A DNA stretch of 64,000 nucleotides, from NCBI RefSeq assembly GCF_024502345.1, contig NZ_JALDNN010000001.1, one strand, 5' to 3'. Each line of letters opens with the position of its first letter. The first letter of the stretch is position 1. The notes below the pieces were generated by a model. That model did not search any database. It was not told the origin of the DNA and saw nothing but the letters and a program-made list of their open reading frames with translations. This DNA comes from Escherichia coli (GTDB taxonomy: Bacteria; Pseudomonadota; Gammaproteobacteria; Enterobacterales; Enterobacteriaceae). A program made the translations under genes and the position numbers. This document shows positions 145 through 63,672 of this stretch, piece by piece.

Positions 145-951
145 ATGAAAGCATTCTGGCGTAACGCCGCGTTGCTCGCGGTTTCTCTGCTTCCCTTCTC
201 TTCTGCCAACGCCTTAGCGTTGCAGGCAAAACAGTATGGCGATTTTGATCGCTATGTCCTGGCTCTCTCCTGGCAAACCGGATTTTGCCAGAGTCAACAC
301 GATCGAAATCGTAACGAACGAGATGAATGTCGCCTGCAAACCGAAACGACCAACAAAGCTGATTTTCTGACCGTACATGGTCTGTGGCCAGGATTACCTA
401 AATCGGTCGCTGCCCGTGGTGTTGATGAACGCCGCTGGATGCGCTTCGGTTGCGCTACTCGCCCAATCCCGAATCTACCAGAAGCGCGCGCCAGCCGGAT
501 GTGTTCATCGCCGGAAACCGGATTATCACTGGAAACGGCCGCTAAACTAAGTGAAGTCATGCCAGGAGCTGGCGGACGTTCCTGCCTGGAACGCTACGAA
601 TATGCCAAACACGGTGCCTGCTTTGGTTTTGATCCGGACGCATACTTCGGTACGATGGTACGCCTGAATCAAGAAATTAAAGAGAGCGAAGCCGGAAAAT
701 TCCTTGCGGATAATTACGGTAAAACAGTGAGCCGCCGTGACTTTGACGCCGCCTTTGCCAAAAGCTGGGGAAAAGAGAACGTGAAAGCAGTTAAGCTAAC
801 GTGCCAGGGTAACCCTGCGTATTTGACTGAAATTCAGATCTCGATCAAAGCTGACGCCATCAACGCTCCGCTTTCTGCAAACTCATTCTTGCCACAACCT
901 CACCCAGGTAACTGTGGCAAAACCTTTGTGATTGATAAAGCGGGTTATTAA
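145..951 (+). CDS. rna: Ribonuclease I (periplasmic RNase T2 family), 268 aa
   Basis: ORF 127..951; translation from MKAFWRNAALLAVSLLPFSSANA (signal peptide) matches RNase I; start refined to the ATG at 145. Confidence 0.93.
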   Translation: MKAFWRNAALLAVSLLPFSSANALALQAKQYGDFDRYVLALSWQTGFCQSQHDRNRNERDECRLQTETTNKADFLTVHGLWPGLPKSVAARGVDERRWMRFGCATRPIPNLPEARASRMCSSPETGLSLETAAKLSEVMPGAGGRSCLERYEYAKHGACFGFDPDAYFGTMVRLNQEIKESEAGKFLADNYGKTVSRRDFDAAFAKSWGKENVKAVKLTCQGNPAYLTEIQISIKADAINAPLSANSFLPQPHPGNCGKTFVIDKAGY

Positions 952-1096
952 TCCTCTGATTTACAAAACACGCTAATTCGTCTTCCATAATCATGACGAT
1001 TAAGAATTATACATAATGCGCTGCATTGAGGAATTCCCTGAATGTGACGCAAATCACTTCAAAGAGTGAGCAACAGTCAGTATCATCATGTGAGTT

Positions 1097-1130
1097 AAAC
1101 CCTCGCCGCCTGACGGTGAGGGTTTTCTTT
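1097..1130 (+). terminator. Possible terminator hairpin in the rna-rnk intergenic region (ccctcgccg...cggtgaggg then TTTTCTTTT)
   Basis: Imperfect inverted repeat followed by a T-rich run; one mismatch in the stem. Confidence 0.35.
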
Positions 1131-1179
1131 TGGGTATGTTTATCTGCGACACTCGCAGTACCGACGACATGGAGTAAAA

Positions 1180-1590
1180 ATGTCCAGACCAACTATCATC
1201 ATTAACGACCTGGATGCCGAACGCATCGATATTCTGCTGGAGCAACCCGCCTATGCTGGTTTGCCAATCGCCGACGCGTTAAACGCAGAGTTGGATCGCG
1301 CCCAAATGTGTTCGCCAGAAGAGATGCCACACGACGTGGTGACAATGAACAGCCGGGTTAAATTCCGCAATCTTAGCGATGGCGAAGTGCGTGTGCGCAC
1401 GCTGGTGTATCCGGCAAAAATGACCGATAGCAATACTCAGCTTTCCGTTATGGCTCCGGTAGGTGCCGCACTGCTGGGACTGCGCGTTGGCGATTCCATT
1501 CACTGGGAACTTCCGGGCGGCGTTGCAACCCACCTTGAAGTGCTGGAACTCGAATACCAGCCAGAAGCTGCTGGCGACTACCTGCTTTAA
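1180..1590 (+). CDS. rnk: Regulator of nucleoside diphosphate kinase Rnk (GreA/GreB-like C-terminal domain), 136 aa
   Basis: ORF 1180..1590; [20 protein letters not shown]... matches Rnk. Confidence 0.92.
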
Positions 1591-1727
1591 TCCCATCTGC
1601 ACAAGCGATAACTCGCTTTGCCCAGAGGATGCACTCGCATCCTCTTTACGCAAAATCAGCAATTTTTCCTGGTTCTCACTGTTCACTTTTGCTGCAAAAT
1701 TATTCCGTTTCGTTTGTGGGAATAACC

Positions 1728-1817
1728 ATGGCAGAAGCATTTTACATCCTGATAGGATTTCTGATTATGGCGGCGATTATCGTCATGGCTGTCCTTTACC
1801 TCGAAAACCACTCCTGA
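1728..1817 (+). CDS. yldA: Small hydrophobic protein, 29 aa (MAEAFYILIGFLIMAAIIVMAVLYLENHS), YldA-like
   Basis: ATG at 1728 inside ORF 1629..1817; single predicted transmembrane helix; position between rnk and ybdR matches the K-12 small protein YldA as I recall it. Confidence 0.5.
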   Translation: MAEAFYILIGFLIMAAIIVMAVLYLENHS

Positions 1818-1820
1818 CGA

Positions 1821-2666
1821 TCATATTGTTCCCCCCGGCATCGCATTCACCAGACCTGAAACCGCCTTCTGCGCCGCCTCTGCGCTTTGTGCACCGGGTA
1901 CCAGAATCACCTTACGGCACTCCTCTTCACGTTTTTCGAAAATCTCATATCCCCGGGCGGCCTCTTCAAACGGCATATAGTGGGTAACAATTTCTTCTGG
2001 TTTCAGTAATCCTTTCTCAATTAACGGTAATAATTCTCCCAGCCATGCGTGAACGTGGGTCTGTCCCATTTTAAACGTCAACCCTTTATCAAAGGCGTCG
2101 CCAAACAGGAAACCGTGAATAAATCCAGCGTAGACGCCCGGTACGCTAACAATGCCGCCACGCCTGACCGCCCCAATACACTGACGCAACGCTTTACCGC
2201 TGCTGCCCTCCAGTTTCAGGTTAGTCAGCACCGTTTCCGTGGTGCTGCCTTTCGCTTCAAAACCGACGGCGTCTATTACTGCATCCACGCCCCGGTGACC
2301 TGCCGTTTGTTCAATAATTGACTGTGCCGGATCGCTATCTTCATCGAAATTAATCGGGATCGCGCCGTAGCGGTCGGCGGCGAAACGCAAGCGGTAGGGA
2401 TGATGATCAACAACAAAAATCTGTTCCGCACCGAGCAACCGTGCACAGGCGATTGTCAACAATCCCACAGGACCAGCACCATAGACTGCAACGCTTGAAC
2501 CTTGTTGGATCTGCGCATTTTTTGCTGCCTGCCATGCCGTTGGCAGAATATCAGAAAGGAAAAGCGCTTTATCATCTGCAAGCAAAGGCGGTACTTTAAA
2601 CGGCCCCACATTCCCTCTAGGGACGCGGACATATTCCGCCTGCCCACCATGTTCAGTGAGAATATA
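1821..2666 (-). pseudogene. ybdR: 5'-truncated Zn-dependent MDR-family dehydrogenase YbdR; only about the C-terminal 280 codons present
   Basis: ORF 1821..2609 carries the Rossmann GAGPVG motif near its own N-terminus; homology continues in frame 16 codons further ([14 protein letters not shown]) to a TAA at 2667-2669. The N-terminal catalytic domain (about 130 aa) is absent and there is no room for it before uspG at 2773. Confidence 0.6.
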
Positions 2667-2772
2667 TTAATCACAGAAACCGTTTGTAAGGAAAAAGAAC
2701 CAGACAAATATCAGGGATAAATATTATAATCATGGTGAATGATTTGTTCATGATTAACAGGGAGAAAGGGTT

Positions 2773-3201
2773 ATGTATAAGACAATCATTATGCCAGTTG
2801 ATGTATTTGAAATGGAATTGAGCGACAAAGCTGTTCGCCACGCTGAATTCCTCGCCCAGGATGACGGAGTTATTCATCTACTTCACGTACTACCCGGGTC
2901 AGCCAGCCTGAGCCTGCACCGTTTTGCCGCTGATGTGCGTCGTTTTGAAGAGCATCTGCAACATGAAGCAGAAGAACGTCTGCAAACGATGGTCAGCCAC
3001 TTCACCATCGATCCTTCCCGCATTAAACAACATGTCCGTTTTGGTAGCGTGCGGGATGAAGTCAATGAGTTGGCAGAAGAACTGGGGGCTGATGTTGTAG
3101 TTATTGGTTCTCGCAACCCATCGATTTCGACCCATCTGTTAGGTTCTAACGCCTCGAGCGTGATCCGCCACGCCAATCTGCCTGTACTGGTCGTTCGCTA
3201 A
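2773..3201 (+). CDS. uspG: Universal stress protein G, 142 aa
   Basis: ORF 2773..3201; [42 protein letters not shown]... matches UspG (YbdQ). Confidence 0.92.
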
Positions 3202-3220
3202 CAGATAAAAGTATTTATGC

Positions 3221-3253
3221 CGCCCTGCCTGGAACATCCCGGCAGGGCTTTTT
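3221..3253 (+). terminator. Rho-independent terminator of uspG (gccctgcctgg...cccggcagggc then TTTTT)
   Basis: Inverted repeat followed by a T-run just after the uspG stop. Confidence 0.65.
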
Positions 3254-3261
3254 AATGCCAT

Positions 3262-3296
3262 AAAAAAGCCGCCAGGTTTGACCCCGGCGGCTAAGC
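3262..3296 (-). terminator. Rho-independent terminator of ahpCF (minus strand: gccgccgggg...cctggcggc then TTTTTT)
   Basis: Inverted repeat plus T-run on the minus strand, just downstream of the ahpF stop at 3322. Confidence 0.65.
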
Positions 3297-3321
3297 AATT
3301 GCAGGTGAATCTTACTTCTTC

Positions 3322-4887
3322 TTATGCAGTTTTGGTGCGAATCAGGTAGTCAAAAGCACTCAGAGAGGCTTTGGCACCTTCGCCAGTGGCGATGATGATC
3401 TGCTTGTACGGAACCGTCGTACAGTCACCCGCTGCGAACACGCCTTTGACGTTGGTTTCGCATTTCGCATCAATGATAATCTCGCCCATGCGGTTACGTT
3501 CGACTGCGCCTTCCAGCCAGTTGGTGTTCGGCAGCAGACCAATCTGGACGAAAATACCGGCCAGTTCGATGTTGTGAATATCGCCGCTGACACGATCTCG
3601 ATATTCCAGACCAACGACTTTGCTGCCGTCGCCTTTCACTTCCGTGGTTTGCGCATTCAGAATAATGTCGACGTTTTTCAGGCTGCGCAGTTTGTCCTGC
3701 AGCACCTGGTCGGCTTTCATTTCTGGCGCAAATTCCAGCAGCGTTACGTGCTCAACGATACCCGCCAGGTCGATTGCCGCTTCCACGCCGGAGTTACCGC
3801 CGCCGATAACCGCTACGCGTTTGCCTTTAAACAGCGGGCCGTCGCAGTGCGGGCAGTAGGTCACGCCTTTGGTGCGATACTGATCTTCGCCCGGAACGTT
3901 CATGTTGCGCCATTTTGCTCCGGTCGCCACGATAATGCTGCGTGCTTTCAGTACCGCGCCAGAAGCTGTTTCAATCTGATGCAGACCACCTTCAACTGCT
4001 GCTGGGATCAGTTTGCTGGCGCTCTGGCTGTCGATCACATCAACGTCGTATTCATCAACGTGAACTTTCAGTGCGCCTGCCAACTTCTGCCCTTCAGTCT
4101 TCGGTACAGAAATGTAGTTTTCGATATCAACGGTATCGAGGATCTGACCACCAAAACGTTCGCCCATCAGACCGGTACGGATGCCTTTACGTGCGGAGTA
4201 AATTGCTGCCGCTGCACCCGCCGGGCCGGAACCAACGATTAATACGTCATAAGCATCACGCTTGTTCAGCTCTTCTGCCGCACGTTTTTCCGCGCCAGTA
4301 TCAATTTTGGCAACGATTTCAGTCAACGTCATGCGGCCCTGACCAAACTCTTTCCCGTTTACGAACACTGCCGGAACGCCCATCACGTTACGATCGGTGA
4401 TTTCGTTCTGGAAGGTGCCGCCATCAATTGCAGTGTGCTTGATGCGCGGGTTCAGTACGCTCATCAGGTTCAGCGCCTGCACCACGTCCGGGCAGTTGTG
4501 GCAAGAGAGCGAGTAATAGGTTTCGAATTCAAAATCACCGTCAATATGGCGAATCTGCTCCAGCAGAGACTGCGCTTCTTTCGACGGATGACCACCGGTC
4601 CACAGCAACGCCAGTACCAGCGAGGTGAACTCATGGCCCAGCGGGGAGCCTGCAAAACGTGGCCCCTGGTTGGAACCTGGGTTGGTGATCAGGAAAGACG
4701 GCTTACGCACTGGCAAGCTGTTATCTTCTTTAAAGGTGACTTTGTCTGACAGTTCTGCGATTTCAGCCAACAGTTCCTTGATTTCTGCCGATTTAGCGCT
4801 GTCATCCAGCGTGGCAATTAACTCAACAGGCTTGGTCAATTTCTCAAGGTAAGCCTTGAGTTGAGTTTTCATATTTGTGTCGAGCAT
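3322..4887 (-). CDS. ahpF: Alkyl hydroperoxide reductase subunit F (NADH-dependent peroxiredoxin reductase), 521 aa
   Basis: ORF 3322..4917; start refined to [17 protein letters not shown]; CxxC redox motif (CPHCDGP) and FAD/NAD-binding glycine motifs present. Confidence 0.93.
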
Positions 4888-5043
4888 GTTTATCTCCTGG
4901 GCTTTAAACATCATCATGCAAGCGGCCTCTACGGCTACCTGGATGCAGCTTGCATCATGGTGCGGGGAAGAAAATCGGGTGCCGCAGCACCCGAAGAATT
5001 AGGTGAATTTCCGAAGTATTTCGCGTCAGAGCAAGGCGGCTAG

Positions 5044-5128
5044 CCTGTGAATCCCCGGGAGCTTACACAAGTAAGTGACCGGGGTGAGCGGGCGACGCCA
5101 ACGCCGCTATGGCGTGAAAGACGAAGGA
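5044..5128. repeat. ERIC/IRU-type intergenic repeat (core gtgaatccccgggagcttacacaagtaagtgaccggggtgagcg)
   Basis: Match to the ERIC consensus core with its internal inverted repeat, in the ahpC-ahpF intergenic region. Confidence 0.7.
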
Positions 5129-5131
5129 AAT

Positions 5132-5695
5132 TTAGATTTTACCAACCAGGTCCAGAGACGGAGCCAGAGTTGCTTCACCTTCTTTCCATTTAGCCGGGCA
5201 AACTTCACCTGGGTGAGAAGCTACGTACTGTGCTGCTTTGATTTTACGCAGCAGGTCAGACGCGTCACGGCCAATGCCTTCAGCGGTAACTTCGATTGCC
5301 TGGATGATACCCTGCGGGTCAACAACGAAGGTCGCACGGTCAGCCAGACCTTCATCTTCACGCATGTTGTCGAAGTTACGGGTCAGGGCGCCAGTCGGGT
5401 CGCCGATCATCGCATATTTGATTTTAGCGATGGTTTCAGAGCTGCTGTGCCATGCTTTGTGGGTGAAGTGAGTATCGGTAGATACTGCGTATACGTCTAC
5501 GCCCAGTTTCTGCAGTTCTTCGTAGTGGTCAGCAACGTCACCCAGTTCGGTCGGGCATACGAAAGTAAAGTCAGCCGGGTAGAAGAAGAAGACGCTCCAG
5601 CGGCCTTCGGTATCTTTTTCGGTGATTTCGATGAATTCGCCGTTTTTGAATGCCTGGTTTTTAAAAGGTTTAATTTTGGTGTTAATCAAGGACAT
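5132..5695 (-). CDS. ahpC: Alkyl hydroperoxide reductase subunit C (2-Cys peroxiredoxin), 187 aa
   Basis: ORF 5132..5695; [51 protein letters not shown]... matches AhpC. Confidence 0.95.
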
Positions 5696-7021: not shown

Positions 7022-7924
7022 ATGGCCAATCTCTACGACTTGAAAAAGTTCGACTTAAATCTTCTTGTCATATTTGAGTGTATTTACCAGCATTTAAGCA
7101 TTAGCAAAGCTGCTGAATCACTATATATCACCCCATCAGCCGTGAGCCAGTCGTTACAACGCTTACGTGCGCAATTTAATGACCCTTTATTCATTCGCTC
7201 AGGAAAAGGTATCGCGCCGACGACAACAGGGTTGAATCTGCATCACCATCTTGAGAAAAATCTCAGAGGCCTTGAACAAACAATTAATATAGTCAATAAG
7301 TCCGAACTAAAGAAAAACTTTATTATCTACGGCCCTCAGCTCATTTCTTGCTCTAATAATAGTATGCTGATCCGCTGCCTACGGCAAGATGCCTCTGTCG
7401 AGATTGAGTGCCATGATATCCTCATGTCAGCAGAGAATGCTGAAGAACTGTTGGTTCACCGCAAAGCCGATCTGGTGATCACCCAAATGCCAGTGATCAG
7501 CCGTTCCGTCATTTGCATGCCATTGCATACGATTCGCAATACTCTCATTTGTAGTAATAGGCATCCACGAATTACTGACAATAGCACTTATGAACAAATT
7601 ATGGCAGAAGAGTTCACCCAATTAATATCTAAATCAGCAGGGGTTGATGATATTCAAATGGAAATAGACGAGAGATTTATGAATCGCAAAATTTCATTTC
7701 GTGGTTCCTCTTTGCTGACAATCATTAATAGCATTGCAGTTACAGATTTACTGGGAATAGTCCCCTATGAACTTTATAACTCCCACCGTGACTCTCTTAA
7801 TTTAAAAGAGATAAAACTAGAACATCCGTTACCTTCAATAAAGCCTTACATTTCCTATAATAAATCTTCTTTAAACAATCTGGTGTTCTCACGATTTATT
7901 GACCGTCTAAATGAGTGTTTTTGA
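7022..7924 (+). CDS. ybdO: LysR-family transcriptional regulator YbdO, 300 aa
   Basis: ORF 7022..7924; N-terminal helix-turn-helix (ISKAAESLYITPSAVSQSLQRLR) typical of LysR regulators; AT-rich, low-GC gene. Confidence 0.85.
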   Translation: MANLYDLKKFDLNLLVIFECIYQHLSISKAAESLYITPSAVSQSLQRLRAQFNDPLFIRSGKGIAPTTTGLNLHHHLEKNLRGLEQTINIVNKSELKKNFIIYGPQLISCSNNSMLIRCLRQDASVEIECHDILMSAENAEELLVHRKADLVITQMPVISRSVICMPLHTIRNTLICSNRHPRITDNSTYEQIMAEEFTQLISKSAGVDDIQMEIDERFMNRKISFRGSSLLTIINSIAVTDLLGIVPYELYNSHRDSLNLKEIKLEHPLPSIKPYISYNKSSLNNLVFSRFIDRLNECF

Positions 7925-8185
7925 TATATAACCTCAGACAGCTACTATAACTTTCACCTATTTATTCACAGCGCGAATGAAAAATAAAACACTCTGCTTT
8001 TCAGTGTTTACTTTATAATTAACAGTCTTATCTCACTGATCACCCTGTAACGTTCAGAGAGCGTCTTCAGATGTCTATTTATAAAATTCCTCTTCCGCTC
8101 AATATTCTGGAAGCTGCACGAGAGCGTATTACCTGGACACTCAACACCCTACCCCGCGTTTGTGTCTCATTTTCTGGCGGCAAAG

Positions 8186-9242
8186 GGCTTTGTTGAATAA
8201 ATCGAACTTTTGCTGAGTTGAAGGATCAGATCACGTATCTTCCCGACAACGCAGACCGTTCCGTGGCAAAGCAAAAGTTCAAAATCACCAACTGGCCCAC
8301 CTACAATAAAGCCCTCATCAACCGTGGCTCCATAACTTTCTGGCTGGATGATGAAGCTATTCAGGCCTGGTATGAGTCAGCAACACCTTCTTCACGAGGC
8401 AGACCTCAGCGCTATTCTGACCTTGCCATCACGACTGTGCTGGTCATTAAACGCGTATTCAGGCTGACCCTGCGCGCTGCGCAGGGCTTTATTGATTCCA
8501 TTTTTTCTCTGATGAACGTTCCGCTACGCTGCCCGGATTACAGCTGTGTCAGCAGGCGGGCAAAGTCGGTTAATGTCAGTTTCAAAACGCCCACCCGGGG
8601 TGAAATCGCACACCTGGTAATTGATTCCACCGGGCTGAAGGTCTTCGGTGAAGGCGAGTGGAAAGTCAAAAAGCATGGCCAGGAACGCCGCCGTATCTGG
8701 CGTAAGCTGCATCTCGCCGTTGACAGTAAAACACATGAAATCATCTGCGCTGACCTGTCGCTGAACAACGTTACGGACTCAGAGGCCTTCCCCGGGTTAA
8801 TCCGGCAAACCCACCGGAAAATCAGGTCAGCCGCCGCCGATGGCGCTTACGATACCCGGCTATGTCACGATGAACTGCGGCGTAAGAAAATCAGCGCGCT
8901 TATCCCTCCCCGAAAAGGTGCGGGTTACTGGCCCGGTGAATATGCAGACCGTAACCGTGCAGTGGCTAATCAGCGAATGACCGGGAGTAATGCGCGGTGG
9001 AAATGGACAACAGATTACAACCGTCGCTCGATAGCGGAAACGGCGATGTACCGGGTAAAACAGCTGTTCGGGGGTTCACTGACACTGCGTGACTACGATG
9101 GTCAGGTTGCAGAGGCTATGGCCCTGGTACGAGCGCTGAACAAAATGACGAAAGCAGGTATGCCTGAAAGCGTGCGTATTGCCTGAAAACACAACCCGCT
9201 ACGGGGGAGACTTACCCGAAATCTGATTTATTCAACAAAGCC
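8186..9242 (+). mobile_element. IS903-type insertion sequence (IS5 family), 1057 bp, with 18-bp terminal inverted repeats ggctttgttgaataaatc; 9-bp target duplication gcggcaaag at 8177-8185 and 9243-9251
   Basis: Terminal inverted repeats at 8186-8203 and 9225-9242; identical 9-bp direct repeats flank the element; one transposase ORF inside. Confidence 0.9.
8263..9186 (+). CDS. IS903 transposase (DDE, IS5 family); likely GTG start giving 307 aa (ORF track starts at TTG 8218)
   Basis: ORF 8218..9186; [38 protein letters not shown]... matches IS903/IS102 transposase. Confidence 0.85.
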   Translation: MAKQKFKITNWPTYNKALINRGSITFWLDDEAIQAWYESATPSSRGRPQRYSDLAITTVLVIKRVFRLTLRAAQGFIDSIFSLMNVPLRCPDYSCVSRRAKSVNVSFKTPTRGEIAHLVIDSTGLKVFGEGEWKVKKHGQERRRIWRKLHLAVDSKTHEIICADLSLNNVTDSEAFPGLIRQTHRKIRSAAADGAYDTRLCHDELRRKKISALIPPRKGAGYWPGEYADRNRAVANQRMTGSNARWKWTTDYNRRSIAETAMYRVKQLFGGSLTLRDYDGQVAEAMALVRALNKMTKAGMPESVRIA

Positions 9243-10329
9243 GCGGCAAAGACTCTGGTTTAATGCTGCATCTGACAGCCGAACTTGCCCGACAAATGGG
9301 CAAAAAAATCTGCGTTTTGTTTATCGACTGGGAGGCGCAATTCTCTTGCACCATTAACTATGTTCAGTCCCTGCGCGAGTTGTACACCGATGTCATCGAA
9401 GAGTTTTACTGGGTTGCGCTCCCGCTTACGACGCAAAATTCCCTTTCACAATACCAACCCGAATGGCAGTGCTGGGAACCTGATGTCGAATGGGTGCGTC
9501 AGCCCCCGCAAGATGCGATAACCGATCCTGACTTTTTCTGCTTTTACCAGCCAGGCATGACCTTCGAACAATTTGTACGTGAGTTTGCCGAATGGTTTTC
9601 ACAAAAACGTCCGGCGGCGATGATGATCGGCATCCGTGCGGATGAGTCCTACAACCGTTTTGTCGCCATCGCCAGTTTAAATAAACAACGTTTTGCCGAC
9701 GATAAACCCTGGACTACGGCCGCACCAGGCGGTCATAGCTGGTACATTTATCCCATTTACGACTGGAAAGTGGCTGATATCTGGACCTGGTATGCAAATC
9801 ATCAAAGTCTCTGCAACCCACTGTATAACCTAATGTATCAGGCAGGCGTTCCTCTGCGTCATATGCGAATTTGCGAACCTTTTGGCCCGGAGCAACGACA
9901 AGGATTATGGCTCTATCACGTTATCGAACCGGATCGCTGGGCTGCTATGTGCGCACGAGTCAGCGGGGTAAAAAGTGGCGGCATTTACGCCGGACATGAC
10001 AATCATTTCTATGGGCATCGGAAAATCCTCAAGCCAGAACATTTAGACTGGCAAGAATATGCATTATTGCTGCTCAATAGCATGCCGGAAAAAACAGCTG
10101 AGCATTACCGCAATAAAATCGCCATTTATTTGCACTGGTATCAGAAAAAAGGCATCGAGGTTCCACAAACCCAGCAAGGGGACATTGGCGCGAAAGATAT
10201 CCCCTCCTGGCGGCGGATATGCAAAGTTTTACTCAATAACGATTACTGGTGTCGGGCATTATCATTTAGTCCTACGAAAGCGAAGAACTATCAGCGTTAT
10301 AACAAACGGATAAAAGGAAAACGTCAGGA

Positions 10330-10959
10330 ATGGGGGATACTATGCAACAACGATTAACGCAGGATTTAACGCAATTTCTCGCCAGCTTGCCGGAAGATGA
10401 TCGCATCAAAGCGATTAATGAAATCCGCATGGCGATCCATCAGGTTAGCCCCTTTCGTGAAGAGCCAGTGGATTGCGTTCTGTGGGTTAAAAACAGCCAA
10501 CTTATGCCTAATGATTACAACCCAAACAACGTGGCACCACCCGAAAAAAAACTGCTGAAAAAATCCATTGAAATAGATGGTTTTACCCAACCCATTGTGG
10601 TCACGCATACGGATAAAAATGCCCTGGAAATCGTGGATGGTTTTCACCGCCATGAAATTGGTAAAGGCTCATCATCATTAAAATTACGCTTAAAAGGTTA
10701 TTTGCCGGTGACCTGTCTGGAAGGTACGCGTAATCAACGCATCGCCGCGACTATTCGTCATAATCGCGCTCGTGGACGCCATCAAATCACCGCCATGTCG
10801 GAAATCGTCCGTGAACTTAGCCAGTTGGGATGGGACGATAATAAAATTGGCAAAGAGCTGGGAATGGACAGCGACGAAGTGCTGCGCCTGAAGCAAATTA
10901 ACGGCCTGCAAGAGTTGTTTGCCGACCGTCAATATTCCCGCGCCTGGACGGTTAAATAG
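10330..10959 (+). CDS. ybdM: ParB/sulfiredoxin-like nuclease-domain protein YbdM, 209 aa
   Basis: ORF 10330..10959; overlaps the ybdN 3' end; ParB-like domain family. Confidence 0.85.
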   Translation: MGDTMQQRLTQDLTQFLASLPEDDRIKAINEIRMAIHQVSPFREEPVDCVLWVKNSQLMPNDYNPNNVAPPEKKLLKKSIEIDGFTQPIVVTHTDKNALEIVDGFHRHEIGKGSSSLKLRLKGYLPVTCLEGTRNQRIAATIRHNRARGRHQITAMSEIVRELSQLGWDDNKIGKELGMDSDEVLRLKQINGLQELFADRQYSRAWTVK

Positions 10960-60832: not shown

Positions 60833-61889
60833 GGCTTTGTTGAATAAATCGAACTTTTGCTGAGTTGAAGGATCAGATCACGTATCTTCCCGACAACGCA
60901 GACCGTTCCGTGGCAAAGCAAAAGTTCAAAATCACCAACTGGCCCACCTACAATAAAGCCCTCATCAACCGTGGCTCCATAACTTTCTGGCTGGATGATG
61001 AAGCTATTCAGGCCTGGTATGAGTCAGCAACACCTTCTTCACGAGGCAGACCTCAGCGCTATTCTGACCTTGCCATCACGACTGTGCTGGTCATTAAACG
61101 CGTATTCAGGCTGACCCTGCGCGCTGCGCAGGGCTTTATTGATTCCATTTTTTCTCTGATGAACGTTCCGCTACGCTGCCCGGATTACAGCTGTGTCAGC
61201 AGGCGGGCAAAGTCGGTTAATGTCAGTTTCAAAACGCCCACCCGGGGTGAAATCGCACACCTGGTAATTGATTCCACCGGGCTGAAGGTCTTCGGTGAAG
61301 GCGAGTGGAAAGTCAAAAAGCATGGCCAGGAACGCCGCCGTATCTGGCGTAAGCTGCATCTCGCCGTTGACAGTAAAACACATGAAATCATCTGCGCTGA
61401 CCTGTCGCTGAACAACGTTACGGACTCAGAGGCCTTCCCCGGGTTAATCCGGCAAACCCACCGGAAAATCAGGTCAGCCGCCGCCGATGGCGCTTACGAT
61501 ACCCGGCTATGTCACGATGAACTGCGGCGTAAGAAAATCAGCGCGCTTATCCCTCCCCGAAAAGGTGCGGGTTACTGGCCCGGTGAATATGCAGACCGTA
61601 ACCGTGCAGTGGCTAATCAGCGAATGACCGGGAGTAATGCGCGGTGGAAATGGACAACAGATTACAACCGTCGCTCGATAGCGGAAACGGCGATGTACCG
61701 GGTAAAACAGCTGTTCGGGGGTTCACTGACACTGCGTGACTACGATGGTCAGGTTGCAGAGGCTATGGCCCTGGTACGAGCGCTGAACAAAATGACGAAA
61801 GCAGGTATGCCTGAAAGCGTGCGTATTGCCTGAAAACACAACCCGCTACGGGGGAGACTTACCCGAAATCTGATTTATTCAACAAAGCC
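60833..61889 (+). mobile_element. Second IS903-type element, 1057 bp, same orientation as the copy at 8186..9242 and apparently identical; no target-site duplication (flanks gccccagat / tcgctgaaa)
   Basis: Same 18-bp terminal inverted repeats at 60833-60850 and 61872-61889; left flank is ompT, right flank is the interior of an IS3-family element. Confidence 0.88.
60910..61833 (+). CDS. IS903 transposase (copy 2), 307 aa from GTG (ORF track 60865..61833)
   Basis: Translation identical to the transposase at 8263..9186. Confidence 0.85.
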
Positions 61890-62080
61890 TCGCTGAAAGT
61901 GGAATGTATCCATGGAGAACACTTTATCAGCCGGGAAATAATGCGGGCAACGGTGTTTAATTATATCGAATGTGATTACAATCGGTGGCGGCGGCACAGT
62001 TGGTGTGGCGGCCTCAGTCCGGAACAATTTGAAAACCAGAACCTCGCTTAGGCCTGTGTCCATATTACGTGGGTAGGATC
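61890..62080 (+). mobile_element. 3' remnant (about 190 bp) of an IS3-family element: last about 50 codons of the OrfB transposase (...[28 protein letters not shown]) plus right inverted repeat ending ...ggtaggatca
   Basis: Open frame from the IS903 junction to a TAG at 62047-62049, followed by an IS3-group-like terminal repeat ending CA. Confidence 0.6.
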
Positions 62081-62331
62081 ACACCTTCTTCCACACTTTC
62101 TGGAACATTTAGGTAACAACCATCTGGATATTGGTGTTGGAACTGGGTTTTACCTTACTCACGTACCTGAGAGTAGTCTGATATCTTTAATGGATTTGAA
62201 CGAAGCTAGCCTGAACGCGGCATCTACAAGGGCTGGGGAATCAAAAATTAAACATAAAATTAACCATTGATGTAGCCCCCTGAAACACCGGACAGTAGCT
62301 GTATCTCCAGATAAGAGATAGGCTTGAATAT

Positions 62332-62727
62332 ATGTCTAACACTAACGCCAATTTTGAGATGACCGGGATCCTGTTAGGGCAAGAAGTCCGTAAACGTAAA
62401 ACTCCTCAGGAGAAGATCGCCATTATCCAGCAGACGATGGAGCCGGGTATGAATGTCTCCCATGTCGCCCGCCTGCATGGTATCCAGCCCAGCCTGCTGT
62501 TTAAGTGGAAGAAGCAATATCAGGAAGGCAGCCTCACCGCCGTTGCGGCTGGAGAGGAAGTCGTTCCTGCTTCTGAGCTTACTGCTGCTCTGAAGCAGGT
62601 CCGGGAGCTTCAGCGCCTTCTGGGCAAGAAAACGATGGAAGTTGAGATCCTGAAAGAAGCCGTGGAGTACGGTCAGTCGCGAAAATGGATAGCGCACGCG
62701 CCCTTGTTGCCAAAGGACGGGGAATAG
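62332..62727 (+). CDS. IS2-group transposase OrfA (helix-turn-helix DNA-binding subunit), 131 aa
   Basis: ORF 62332..62727; clearly related to, but not identical with, IS2 InsC as I recall it (shared blocks [46 protein letters not shown]...LKEAVEYG). Confidence 0.8.
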
Positions 62728-63566
62728 CCATGGTCAGCCGGACCATGGGCGTGTCGCGTGCGCAACTGTCACTGCGGATTAACCGTTCTGCCGACTGGCA
62801 GGACAGGCGCTGTAACCGGCGTAATGAAGAAGCAGACGCAGAAATACTGTCGGCTATCCTCAACATTATCAGCGATATGCCGAGTTATGGTTATCGACGC
62901 GTGTGGGGCATCCTGCGCAAGCAACGTCGCACAGAGGGACAGCCACCTGTGAATGCCAAACGGCTTTACAGGATAATGAGCGAGCATAACCTGTTGTTGT
63001 TGCATCACAAACCAGAGCGACCGAAGCGTGAACATAAGGGCAAGATAGCGGTGGCAGAAAGCGATATGCGCTGGTGTTCAGATGGCTTCGAGTTCGGCTG
63101 CGACAACGGCGAAAAACTGCGGGTAACGTTCGCGCTGGACTGCTGCGACCGTGAGGCCATAGACTGGGCAGCAAGCACGGGAGGCTATGACAGTTCGACC
63201 GTGCAGGATGTGATGCTGAGGTCGGTGGAAAAGCGCTTCGGCGACAGGTTGCCCGACACAGCGGTGCAGTGGCTGACGGATAACGGTTCAGCGTATACCG
63301 CGTATGAAACGCGGAGGTTCGCGAGAGAGCTGAATCTGGAGCCCTGCACAACAGCGGTGAGCAGCCCGCAGAGTAATGGCATGGCCGAACGGTTCGTGAA
63401 AACGATGAAAGAAGACTATATCGCGTTCATGCCAAAACCGGATGTGAGAACAGCACTGCGAAACCTTGCAGTAGCGTTCACGCATTACAATGAAAACCAC
63501 CCGCACAGCGCGCTGGGATATCACTCCCCGAGGGAATACCGGCGGCAGCGGACATCGTTAACTTAA
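62685..63566 (+). CDS. IS2-group transposase OrfB (DDE integrase domain), 293 aa as an ORF; probably expressed as an OrfAB fusion by -1 frameshifting
   Basis: ORF 62685..63566 in the -1 frame relative to orfA with a 43-nt overlap; conserved [42 protein letters not shown] blocks. Confidence 0.8.
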
Positions 63567-63672
63567 GATACAAAAGCTGTTCGGAGATGGAGGGTCAAGA
63601 TCACATAAAATTAACCATGATGTTTTTGAACCTTATCCCGCGGCGTTACATGGTCAATTTGATTCCATTTCC

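Follow-up and report, generated by a model that had tools for sequence, protein, structure and literature searches.

The ybdN gene of this Escherichia coli chromosome is interrupted by an insertion sequence, which raises the question of how the element came to lie there: whether it arrived by a single and recent transposition, whether it marks one end of a larger mobile or rearranged segment, or whether it was placed there by the assembly, and what its arrival would have meant for ybdN and its operon partner ybdM. IS903B is notorious as an inactivator of mgrB and as a passenger of resistance plasmids. Having analysed a 64-kb stretch of DNA that includes the gene (hereafter the window), we consider it close to certain that a single complete IS903B transposed into chromosomal ybdN in one simple, recent insertion.

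Results

The element occupies positions 8186..9242 on the plus strand, co-oriented with ybdN, and is a complete, 1,057-bp member of the IS903 group of the IS5 family. It is bounded by 18-bp terminal inverted repeats, GGCTTTGTTGAATAAATC on the left (8186..8203, plus strand) and a repeat matching GGCTTTGTTGAATAAATC on the right (9225..9242, minus strand), which agree at 18/18 positions and inward of which identity falls off at once. Across the 64-kb window this repeat was found 4 times against 0.04 expected by chance, and the four matches correspond to the two termini of each of two IS copies. Immediately outside the element lie the two copies of a 9-bp target-site duplication, GCGGCAAAG, at 8177..8185 on the left and 9243..9251 on the right (no strand is assigned to either). 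The 9-mer occurs twice in the window, both times directly adjoining an IS end, and the chance probability of a 9/9 match at a fixed position is 4^-9, or ~4e-6. The initial annotation had reported an IS903-type element at 8186 with this duplication at its two sides, and every coordinate proved exact.

Within the element, the ORF list, Pfam and NCBIfam identify an intact transposase ORF of the DDE type (8218..9186, plus strand), whose product measures 322 aa from a TTG (the PGAP start) or 307 aa from a GTG at 8263. It matches DDE_Tnp_1_5 (137 bits) and DDE_Tnp_1 (115 bits) in Pfam, as well as NF033579 in NCBIfam (357 bits vs a cutoff of 140). The exact protein is found on >1,000 contigs, where it is named 'IS5-like element IS903B family transposase', and the DNA of the ybdN copy matches IS903B-annotated plasmid copies from Citrobacter, Salmonella and E. 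coli at 100% identity across all 1,057 bp. Plasmid matches to the element fall into two classes, with 1,566 records at an identity of at least 99% and 3,289 records at 95-99%. The name first given to it, IS903, holds for the group on the grounds of length, repeats, 9-bp duplication and transposase; the isoform is refined here to IS903B, a sequence-based assignment whose name derives from the RefSeq/PGAP labels of the 100%-identical copies.

The 5' fragment of ybdN (8071..8185, plus strand) starts with the ATG at 8071 and comprises codons 1-38 and the first base of codon 39. Its frame reads MSIY...SFSGGK up to 8184 and then enters the IS at 8186, and the fragment as it stands is a 41-aa ORF (8071-8196) that ends GLC* within the IS repeat; an exact-peptide look-up found the junction peptide, P0016, on 5 other contigs as well. 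The 3' fragment (9252..10357, plus strand), delimited by the rejoined-ORF check and Pfam, runs from the remainder of codon 39 through the stop, and the longest ORF on this side has 364 aa, starts at M43 (9263-10357) and is without the PP-loop. When positions 8186-9251 were removed in silico, the fragments joined in frame into an unbroken ybdN ORF of 406 aa that ends at 10357, in agreement with the roughly 406 codons predicted at the outset. The rejoined YbdN exactly matches an intact E. coli protein, P0001, which is present on 55 contigs.

The rejoined protein carries PAPS_reduct (PF01507; residues 30-234, 56.3 bits vs a cutoff of 22.5) and, C-terminally, DUF3440 (PF11922; residues 237-344, 112.3 bits vs a cutoff of 25), together with a weak match to the PP-loop family PF01171 (residues 30-68, 20.3 bits, below the cutoff of 27) whose span includes SGGKDS. 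Read directly from the rejoined YbdN, S35-G-G-K-D-S40 is the SGGxDS PP-loop motif, and the IS parts K38 from D39 within it. The insertion had been described earlier as lying inside a P-loop, which we correct here: the Walker-A pattern GxxxxGK[ST] is absent from YbdN, where SFSGGKDS has D after the K, no P-loop NTPase family was matched in Pfam, and the motif reads as the PP-loop of PAPS-reductase-type ATP pyrophosphatases. A PDB sequence search with the rejoined YbdN returned only a spurious tail-protein match (E = 0.002), NCBIfam gave only PAPS-reductase, CysD and DndC matches, all far below threshold, and PADLOC only weak matches to DndC and BrxP; these three resources add no predicted functional assignment beyond that of Pfam. 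The earlier statement that ybdN is knocked out is borne out as a predicted loss of function, with a frame that runs into the IS and leaves a short stub and a 5'-truncated remainder, and we infer that YbdN is non-functional in the IS-bearing strain.

Upstream of ybdN lies ybdO/citR (7022..7924, plus strand; annotated as citR in RefSeq relatives), an intact 300-aa ORF with Pfam matches to HTH_1 and LysR_substrate that encodes the LysR-type repressor of the ybdNM operon. This operon is repressed by CitR, and its expression is very weak when CitR is present (PMC9068703). The operon partner downstream, ybdM (10330..10959, plus strand), recognised by its ORF and by Pfam as ParB-N / IbrB-like, retains an intact coding sequence that shares 28 nt with the 3' end of ybdN; since the insertion, the IS lies upstream of it. 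An element that is co-oriented with ybdNM and parts ybdM from its CitR-controlled promoter could in principle act as a mobile promoter, such that ybdM or the 364-aa YbdN fragment would be expressed free of CitR repression, but we regard this as improbable. Promoter and terminator consensus scans over 7850-10450 gave counts at chance level with none at the IS-ybdN junction; the promoter-like sites numbered 3 vs 3.4 expected, none was near 9200-9262, and there was no outward sigma-70-like site at the right IS end or the junction. Moreover, the ATG at 9263 reads as having no recognisable ribosome-binding site, and the truncated YbdN product would be without the PP-loop. The knockout probably reaches ybdM through polarity that lowers ybdM expression, because ybdM overlaps ybdN by those 28 nt and ybdNM is an operon.

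Nine loci with an empty site could be compared with the window, and all of them (9/9) have one copy of GCGGCAAAG and no pre-existing tandem duplication. Counted on a MAFFT alignment in which some loci contain indels, the flanks of a draft E. coli genome (L012, GCA_028757225.1) differ from the window at 2/13,221 positions and those of a second empty-site locus (L013) at 4/13,221, with 0/3,115 on its left side. Because empty-site relatives are this close and rejoined YbdN is identical to intact alleles elsewhere, the insertion can be inferred to be evolutionarily recent; its first description as 'probably recent' is further consistent with the complete identity of the two IS copies in the window. 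The closest complete genome has 98.5% identity over 24.7 kb. With the junction present in 0/5,426 complete E. coli genomes and, in the same orientation, in two metagenome assemblies from other samples, it can be regarded as a rare lineage marker; an exact-junction scan of JGI metagenome contigs gave 0 matches. The left junction was found in L007 and L008 and the right junction in L003 (0/1,527 mismatches), all of them independent metagenome assemblies. The allele is not private to the present assembly, and 'recent' should not be read as 'unique to the isolate'. Some 1.7-2.4 kb upstream, the IS-bearing contigs L007 and L008 depart from the window sequence at 3-5 positions, which calls for a recombination breakpoint or for chimeric metagenome contigs.

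These assemblies also bear on whether an IS copy was misplaced into ybdN during repeat resolution. Such strains carry IS903B in multiple copies, at which short-read assemblies break, with L003, L007, L008 and L009 all ending inside the IS, but a precise 9-bp duplication would not arise from misplacement and the assemblies of other samples have reads across flank, duplication and IS end on both sides. We consider the chance of such an artefact to be negligible.

A second IS903B copy lies at 60833..61889 (plus strand), in direct orientation and 1057/1057 identical to the ybdN copy. It is without a target duplication, has the flanks GCCCCAGAT and TCGCTGAAA, and lies in a rearranged region; it is likely a sibling or the donor of the ybdN copy and could serve as its partner in homologous recombination. 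A candidate for a shared right junction of this copy (H48-H50) was rejected, having turned out to be two unrelated IS matches merged into one place. As the two copies are 100% identical, directly oriented and separated by 51.6 kb, with the second in such surroundings, the elements at 8186 and 60833 might be taken to bound a 53.7-kb composite transposon or an IS-mediated rearrangement. For the ybdN copy this reading is refuted by the perfect 9-bp duplication that flanks it, and overall we hold it to be extremely unlikely: the ybdN halves rejoin exactly, single alignments show the intervening DNA (ybdM, ybdL, the ent/fep cluster and onward) to be collinear with ordinary E. coli chromosomes, and the outer flanks, which should share a duplication in a composite transposon, are GCGGCAAAG to the left of 8186 and TCGCTGAAA to the right of 61889. 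A simple insertion of one element into ybdN remains our preferred reading, and the word 'uncomplicated' used for it in the initial annotation suits an intact duplication whose left and right flanks alike are collinear with ordinary E. coli.

Other inactivating changes in ybdN were also found. In L009 (SRR34049315) an IS end lies at the identical 9-bp site, with the IS inverted and a flank haplotype that differs at 26/3,115 positions; because the orientation of an IS against its flank cannot be changed by homologous recombination, we read it as an independent event. GD33 (NZ_CP076646.1) has a separate IS903B in ybdN after nt 861, with the target duplication GCCGGACAT, and a nonsense allele, C154T (R52*), is widespread, with 125 index blocks listed. 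Short N-terminal YbdN 'partial' proteins were considered as extra PP-loop-proximal insertions and rejected, as those read end in native sequence; the most frequent of them, P0018, is the R52* nonsense allele. The tally of ybdNM inactivations stands at three IS903B events and the widespread R52*.

Such recurrence invites the idea that the element did not land at random, either because codons 36-39 are a favoured IS903B target or because loss of ybdNM is selected and the knockout recurs. The inverted insertion of L009 at the same site on a different haplotype, the IS903B of GD33 and the spread of R52* speak for it, as does the local sequence in part. A target profile built from 165 IS903-group junctions (GTDB scan) has a T-T-T-Y-A preference at positions -6 to -2, a block that sits one base further out than the motif transcribed in PMC2577343 Table 1, and the left half-site at ybdN, TTTTCTG, fits it at the 97th percentile. 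The right half-site has no match, however, and the whole site, at the 92nd percentile, ranks only 149th of 1,212 ybdN positions, with a predicted share of 0.10% of insertions vs 0.08% under uniformity. In addition, the junction-peptide look-up catches same-site events only, against a background of sequenced E. coli that runs into the hundreds of thousands, and neutral decay would be enough to account for the ybdN losses because ybdNM is very weakly expressed with CitR (PMC9068703). We therefore treat non-random landing as possible but doubtful, and think it somewhat less likely again that codons 36-39 are a real IS903B hot spot beyond the known flank preference and that ybdNM is repeatedly lost, perhaps with advantage in some niches.

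Discussion

The history that best fits the locus is a short one. The transposase cut the target GCGGCAAAG, in ybdN codons 36-39, with a 9-bp stagger, and repair left a copy of the 9 bp at either end of the 1,057-bp element, which has stayed unchanged ever since, without deletion, inversion or inter-IS recombination. The outcome is the 41-aa stub and a 5'-truncated ybdN fragment without start context. The donor was presumably another identical IS903B, either the copy 51.6 kb off in the window or a plasmid copy.

In all of this the element behaves like its known relatives. IS903B has been described as 1,057 bp long with 9-bp direct repeats (PMC10513040), a 9-bp duplication is given for the IS903 group (PMC2577343 Table 1), and IS602, an IS903 isoform, also measures 1,057 bp and has an annotated TTG-start tnp ORF of 969 nt (PMC9282650). 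The copy in ybdN is like the IS903B copies of enterobacterial plasmids and chromosomes in its length, 18-bp repeats, 9-bp duplication and single DDE transposase; IS903 of Tn903, IS602 and IS102 are sequence isoforms whose length, ends and duplication size are as in the window element. The element itself is no different from known IS903B copies; what is new is where it has inserted.

The closest parallel within the same gene is ybdN::IS903B of E. coli GD33, which has the same orientation and an IS that is 1053/1057 identical, and which is annotated as two pseudogene fragments; its break lies inside DUF3440 near the PAPS_reduct boundary, whereas that of the window falls in the PP-loop. In Klebsiella, mgrB::IS903B involves recurrent insertion at near-identical 'hot-spot' positions, with a plasmid copy as the likely donor (PMC10513040). 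Element and mechanism (simple insertion, 9-bp repeats, knockout) are the same as in ybdN, but loss of mgrB confers a strongly selected phenotype in the form of colistin resistance, while no function or selectable phenotype is known for ybdN.

A known element has thus produced a well-understood type of gene knockout, and the locus is a clean case of IS-mediated pseudogenisation that carries little weight by itself. Its proper annotation would be one ybdN pseudogene and one IS903B mobile element, instead of two hypothetical genes. The 51.6 kb between the two IS copies hold ybdM, the cus operon and the entire ent/fep cluster for enterobactin, and from the direct arrangement of the copies one homologous recombination event could delete or amplify this segment. 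Finally, the recurrent loss of ybdN offers a small hint on the ybdNM pair, a PAPS-reductase-like PP-loop enzyme and a ParB-like protein.

Results

The ybdN gene starts with the ATG at 8071 and reads MSIYKIPLPLNILEAARERITWTLNTLPRVCVSFSGGK up to 8184; from 8186 it is interrupted by an insertion sequence that begins with GGCTTTGTTGAATAAATC, the reverse complement of which ends the element at 9242. The element is 1,057 bp long and its 18-bp termini are perfect inverted repeats, with identity lost directly inward of them; the window contains this 18-bp repeat four times (0.04 expected by chance), at the ends of two copies of the element. A 9-bp target-site duplication, GCGGCAAAG, lies flush with both ends (8177-8185 and 9243-9251) and has no other occurrence in the 64 kb, so that the coordinates and duplication reported in the initial annotation are exact. 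The same annotation had staked its reading on the two gene fragments rejoining in frame after excision, and removing 8186-9251 in silico indeed yields a single 406-codon ORF that ends at 10357.

All 1,057 bp are 100% identical to plasmid copies from Citrobacter, Salmonella and E. coli, each of which is annotated 'IS5-like element IS903B family transposase', and full-length relatives are found in at least 5,000 plasmid records, with Klebsiella and Escherichia predominating. The unbroken transposase ORF (8218-9186) encodes 322 aa from a TTG (the PGAP start) or 307 aa from the GTG at 8263; its product matches Pfam DDE_Tnp_1_5 and DDE_Tnp_1, scores 357 bits against the NCBIfam IS5-family model NF033579 (cutoff 140) and is identical to a protein present on more than 1,000 contigs. 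IS903B is described as 1,057 bp long with 9-bp direct repeats (PMC10513040), and a 9-bp duplication is listed for IS903 (PMC2577343 Table 1). The element thus appears to have all the testable defining features, the isoform label being taken from others' annotation of identical copies; the original call of IS903 holds for the type of element and is refined to IS903B.

Rejoined YbdN, the product of the in silico excision, contains PAPS_reduct (residues 30-234) and DUF3440 (residues 237-344) domains, both above Pfam cutoffs, and RefSeq annotates the gene as ybdN, 'phosphoadenosine phosphosulfate reductase'; none of the tools applied assigned a function beyond these domains. The element enters codon 39 behind its first base and so separates K38 from D39 in S35-G-G-K-D-S40, the SGGxDS PP-loop of ATP pyrophosphatases; a weak PP-loop family match spans residues 30-68. 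The motif had originally been called a P-loop, but a Walker-A reading is rejected because the lysine is followed by aspartate. What remains of the gene is a 5' ORF of 41 aa with the IS-encoded end GLC* and a 3' part whose first ATG (9263, M43) comes without an obvious ribosome-binding site and without the nucleotide-binding motif. The downstream gene ybdM (ParB-N / IbrB-like, 10330-10959) shares a 28-nt overlap with the end of ybdN, and ChIP-exo and RNA-seq have placed ybdNM in one operon, which is under repression by the LysR regulator YbdO/CitR encoded next to it and shows hardly any expression in wild-type cells (PMC9068703); given this overlap and the common operon, a polar effect on ybdM is likely. 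Promoter and terminator scans around the insertion gave counts at chance level. Elsewhere, one contig (Logan SRR31115871, locus 7194-7824) has a frameshift that splits ybdM into 80-aa and 149-aa ORFs beside an intact ybdN, and this may reflect an error in sequencing or assembly.

A second IS903B copy (60833-61889), in direct orientation and identical at 1057/1057 positions, has a different history. Its flanks, GCCCCAGAT and TCGCTGAAA, show no target duplication. On the left, ompT breaks off after about 250 nt, and its 3' part is missing along with appY. The right side (61890-62094) consists of some 205 bp from the end of an IS3, with 95-98% identity to copies of IS3 throughout E. coli. By its flanks, the copy sits in or against a truncated IS3; it has clearly undergone deletion or nesting, and the site looks like the outcome of IS-mediated adjacent deletion or inter-IS recombination. 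Beyond the IS3 end, a class I SAM-methyltransferase gene is interrupted by a 1,336-bp IS2-like (IS3-family) element (62268-63603), whose 293-aa ORF matches the IS2 TnpB model. This element is bordered by a 15-bp direct repeat, CATAAAATTAACCAT, at 62253-62267 and 63604-63618, which is much longer than the 5-bp duplication of IS2.

The two IS903B copies enclose 51.6 kb, including the ent/fep and cus clusters, and could be taken for the ends of a composite transposon. This reading fails its defining test: the ybdN copy retains its own duplication, the gene halves rejoin perfectly, and the DNA on either side is collinear with ordinary E. coli. For the same reasons the ybdN copy is untouched by deletion or nesting, and its description as a simple insertion holds.

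A search of 5,426 complete RefSeq E. coli genomes did not find the ybdN-IS junction in any of them. Intact alleles on 55 contigs match rejoined YbdN exactly, and all nine loci examined with this exact allele have an empty site with a single GCGGCAAAG. The two closest of these, L012 (GCA_028757225.1) and L013, differ from the window at only 2 and 4 of 13,221 flanking bases (0/3,115 on the left side of L013), and these near-identical flanks indicate that the insertion post-dates a very shallow split, in keeping with its earlier description as recent. Across 9252-34000, the 24.7-kb ybdN-ent/fep stretch, the best of the 5,426 complete genomes is only 98.5% identical, and the draft genome GCA_028757225.1 reaches 99.985% over the 13 kb surrounding ybdN; complete genomes seem to cover this lineage poorly. 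The 41-aa junction-specific peptide is present on five other contigs. The left junction recurs in two ENA metagenome assemblies (L007 and L008) and the right junction in L003, from the sample of L008, with 0/1,527 mismatches; an assembly artefact is therefore ruled out, and the allele is rare, not private to the strain. Between 1.7 and 2.4 kb upstream, L007 and L008 depart from the window sequence at 3-5 sites, where their alleles are shared with another haplotype; either a recombination breakpoint or chimerism of the metagenome contigs would account for this.

Another locus, L009 (Logan SRR34049315, locus 3107-3144), ends in GCGGCAAAG followed directly by GGCTTTGTTGAATAAATCAGATTTCGGGT, that is, at the same 9-bp target. 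The IS903-type end found there is the window's right-hand end, so the orientation is opposite, and the flank differs at 26 of 3,115 positions, as near as 159 bp to the junction. Since homologous recombination inside an IS cannot flip it relative to its flank, L009 represents a second, independent insertion into this site. We attach no probability to this coincidence, because the junction-peptide look-up detects same-site events only and the E. coli in public data number in the hundreds of thousands. A search for the IS left end in GTDB representative genomes yielded 120 loci with 165 unique IS-flank junctions, whose profile is T-T-T-Y-A at -6 to -2 outside the duplication; its bases match those of the published WTTYA...TRAAW motif (as transcribed in PMC2577343 Table 1), but the block lies one base further out. 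The left half of the ybdN site, TTTTCTG, fits well (97th percentile) and the right half does not match; overall, the site scores at the 92nd percentile among window positions and comes 149th of the 1,212 positions in ybdN. Its predicted share of ybdN insertions is 0.10%, against 0.08% under uniformity; by the simple 165-junction profile, no hot spot is expected here, and we regard one as rather unlikely. The same scan covered both flanks of 42 full IS903-group copies (1,054-1,057 bp), and only 16 of them had a perfect 9-bp duplication.

Discussion

The observation is confirmed, and its interpretation as a simple insertion that inactivates ybdN is supported, with four corrections: the isoform is IS903B, the motif is a PP-loop, the allele is rare rather than strain-private, and polarity on ybdM is probable. 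The gene has also been lost in other ways. E. coli GD33 (NZ_CP076646.1, locus 4233-5289) carries an independent IS903B in the same orientation after nt 861 of ybdN, 1053/1057 identical to the window copy and with the duplication GCCGGACAT; our query, one-third of it IS903B, matched 21 places in that record, which suggests many IS copies. Many E. coli assemblies carry a nonsense allele, C154T (R52*), with a 51-aa product in 125 index blocks (seen in L140-L147, locus 1501-1656); this is a second, widespread route of ybdN pseudogenisation. In the neighbouring ybdO/citR, the marine-sediment isolate E. coli DLI.5a (NZ_CP103972.1, locus 148-5187) carries an ISEcp1-blaCTX-M-14-IS903B(partial)-lamB(partial) unit.

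Since CitR leaves the operon almost unexpressed (PMC9068703), neutral decay accounts economically for recurrent ybdN loss; selection favouring the loss is possible. Overall, this is a textbook element with a textbook mechanism and footprint, and the particular ybdN site is new but unremarkable. That this site is a specific hot spot, or that ybdNM undergoes recurrent selected loss, is unlikely in our judgement and, if true, would be of modest interest.
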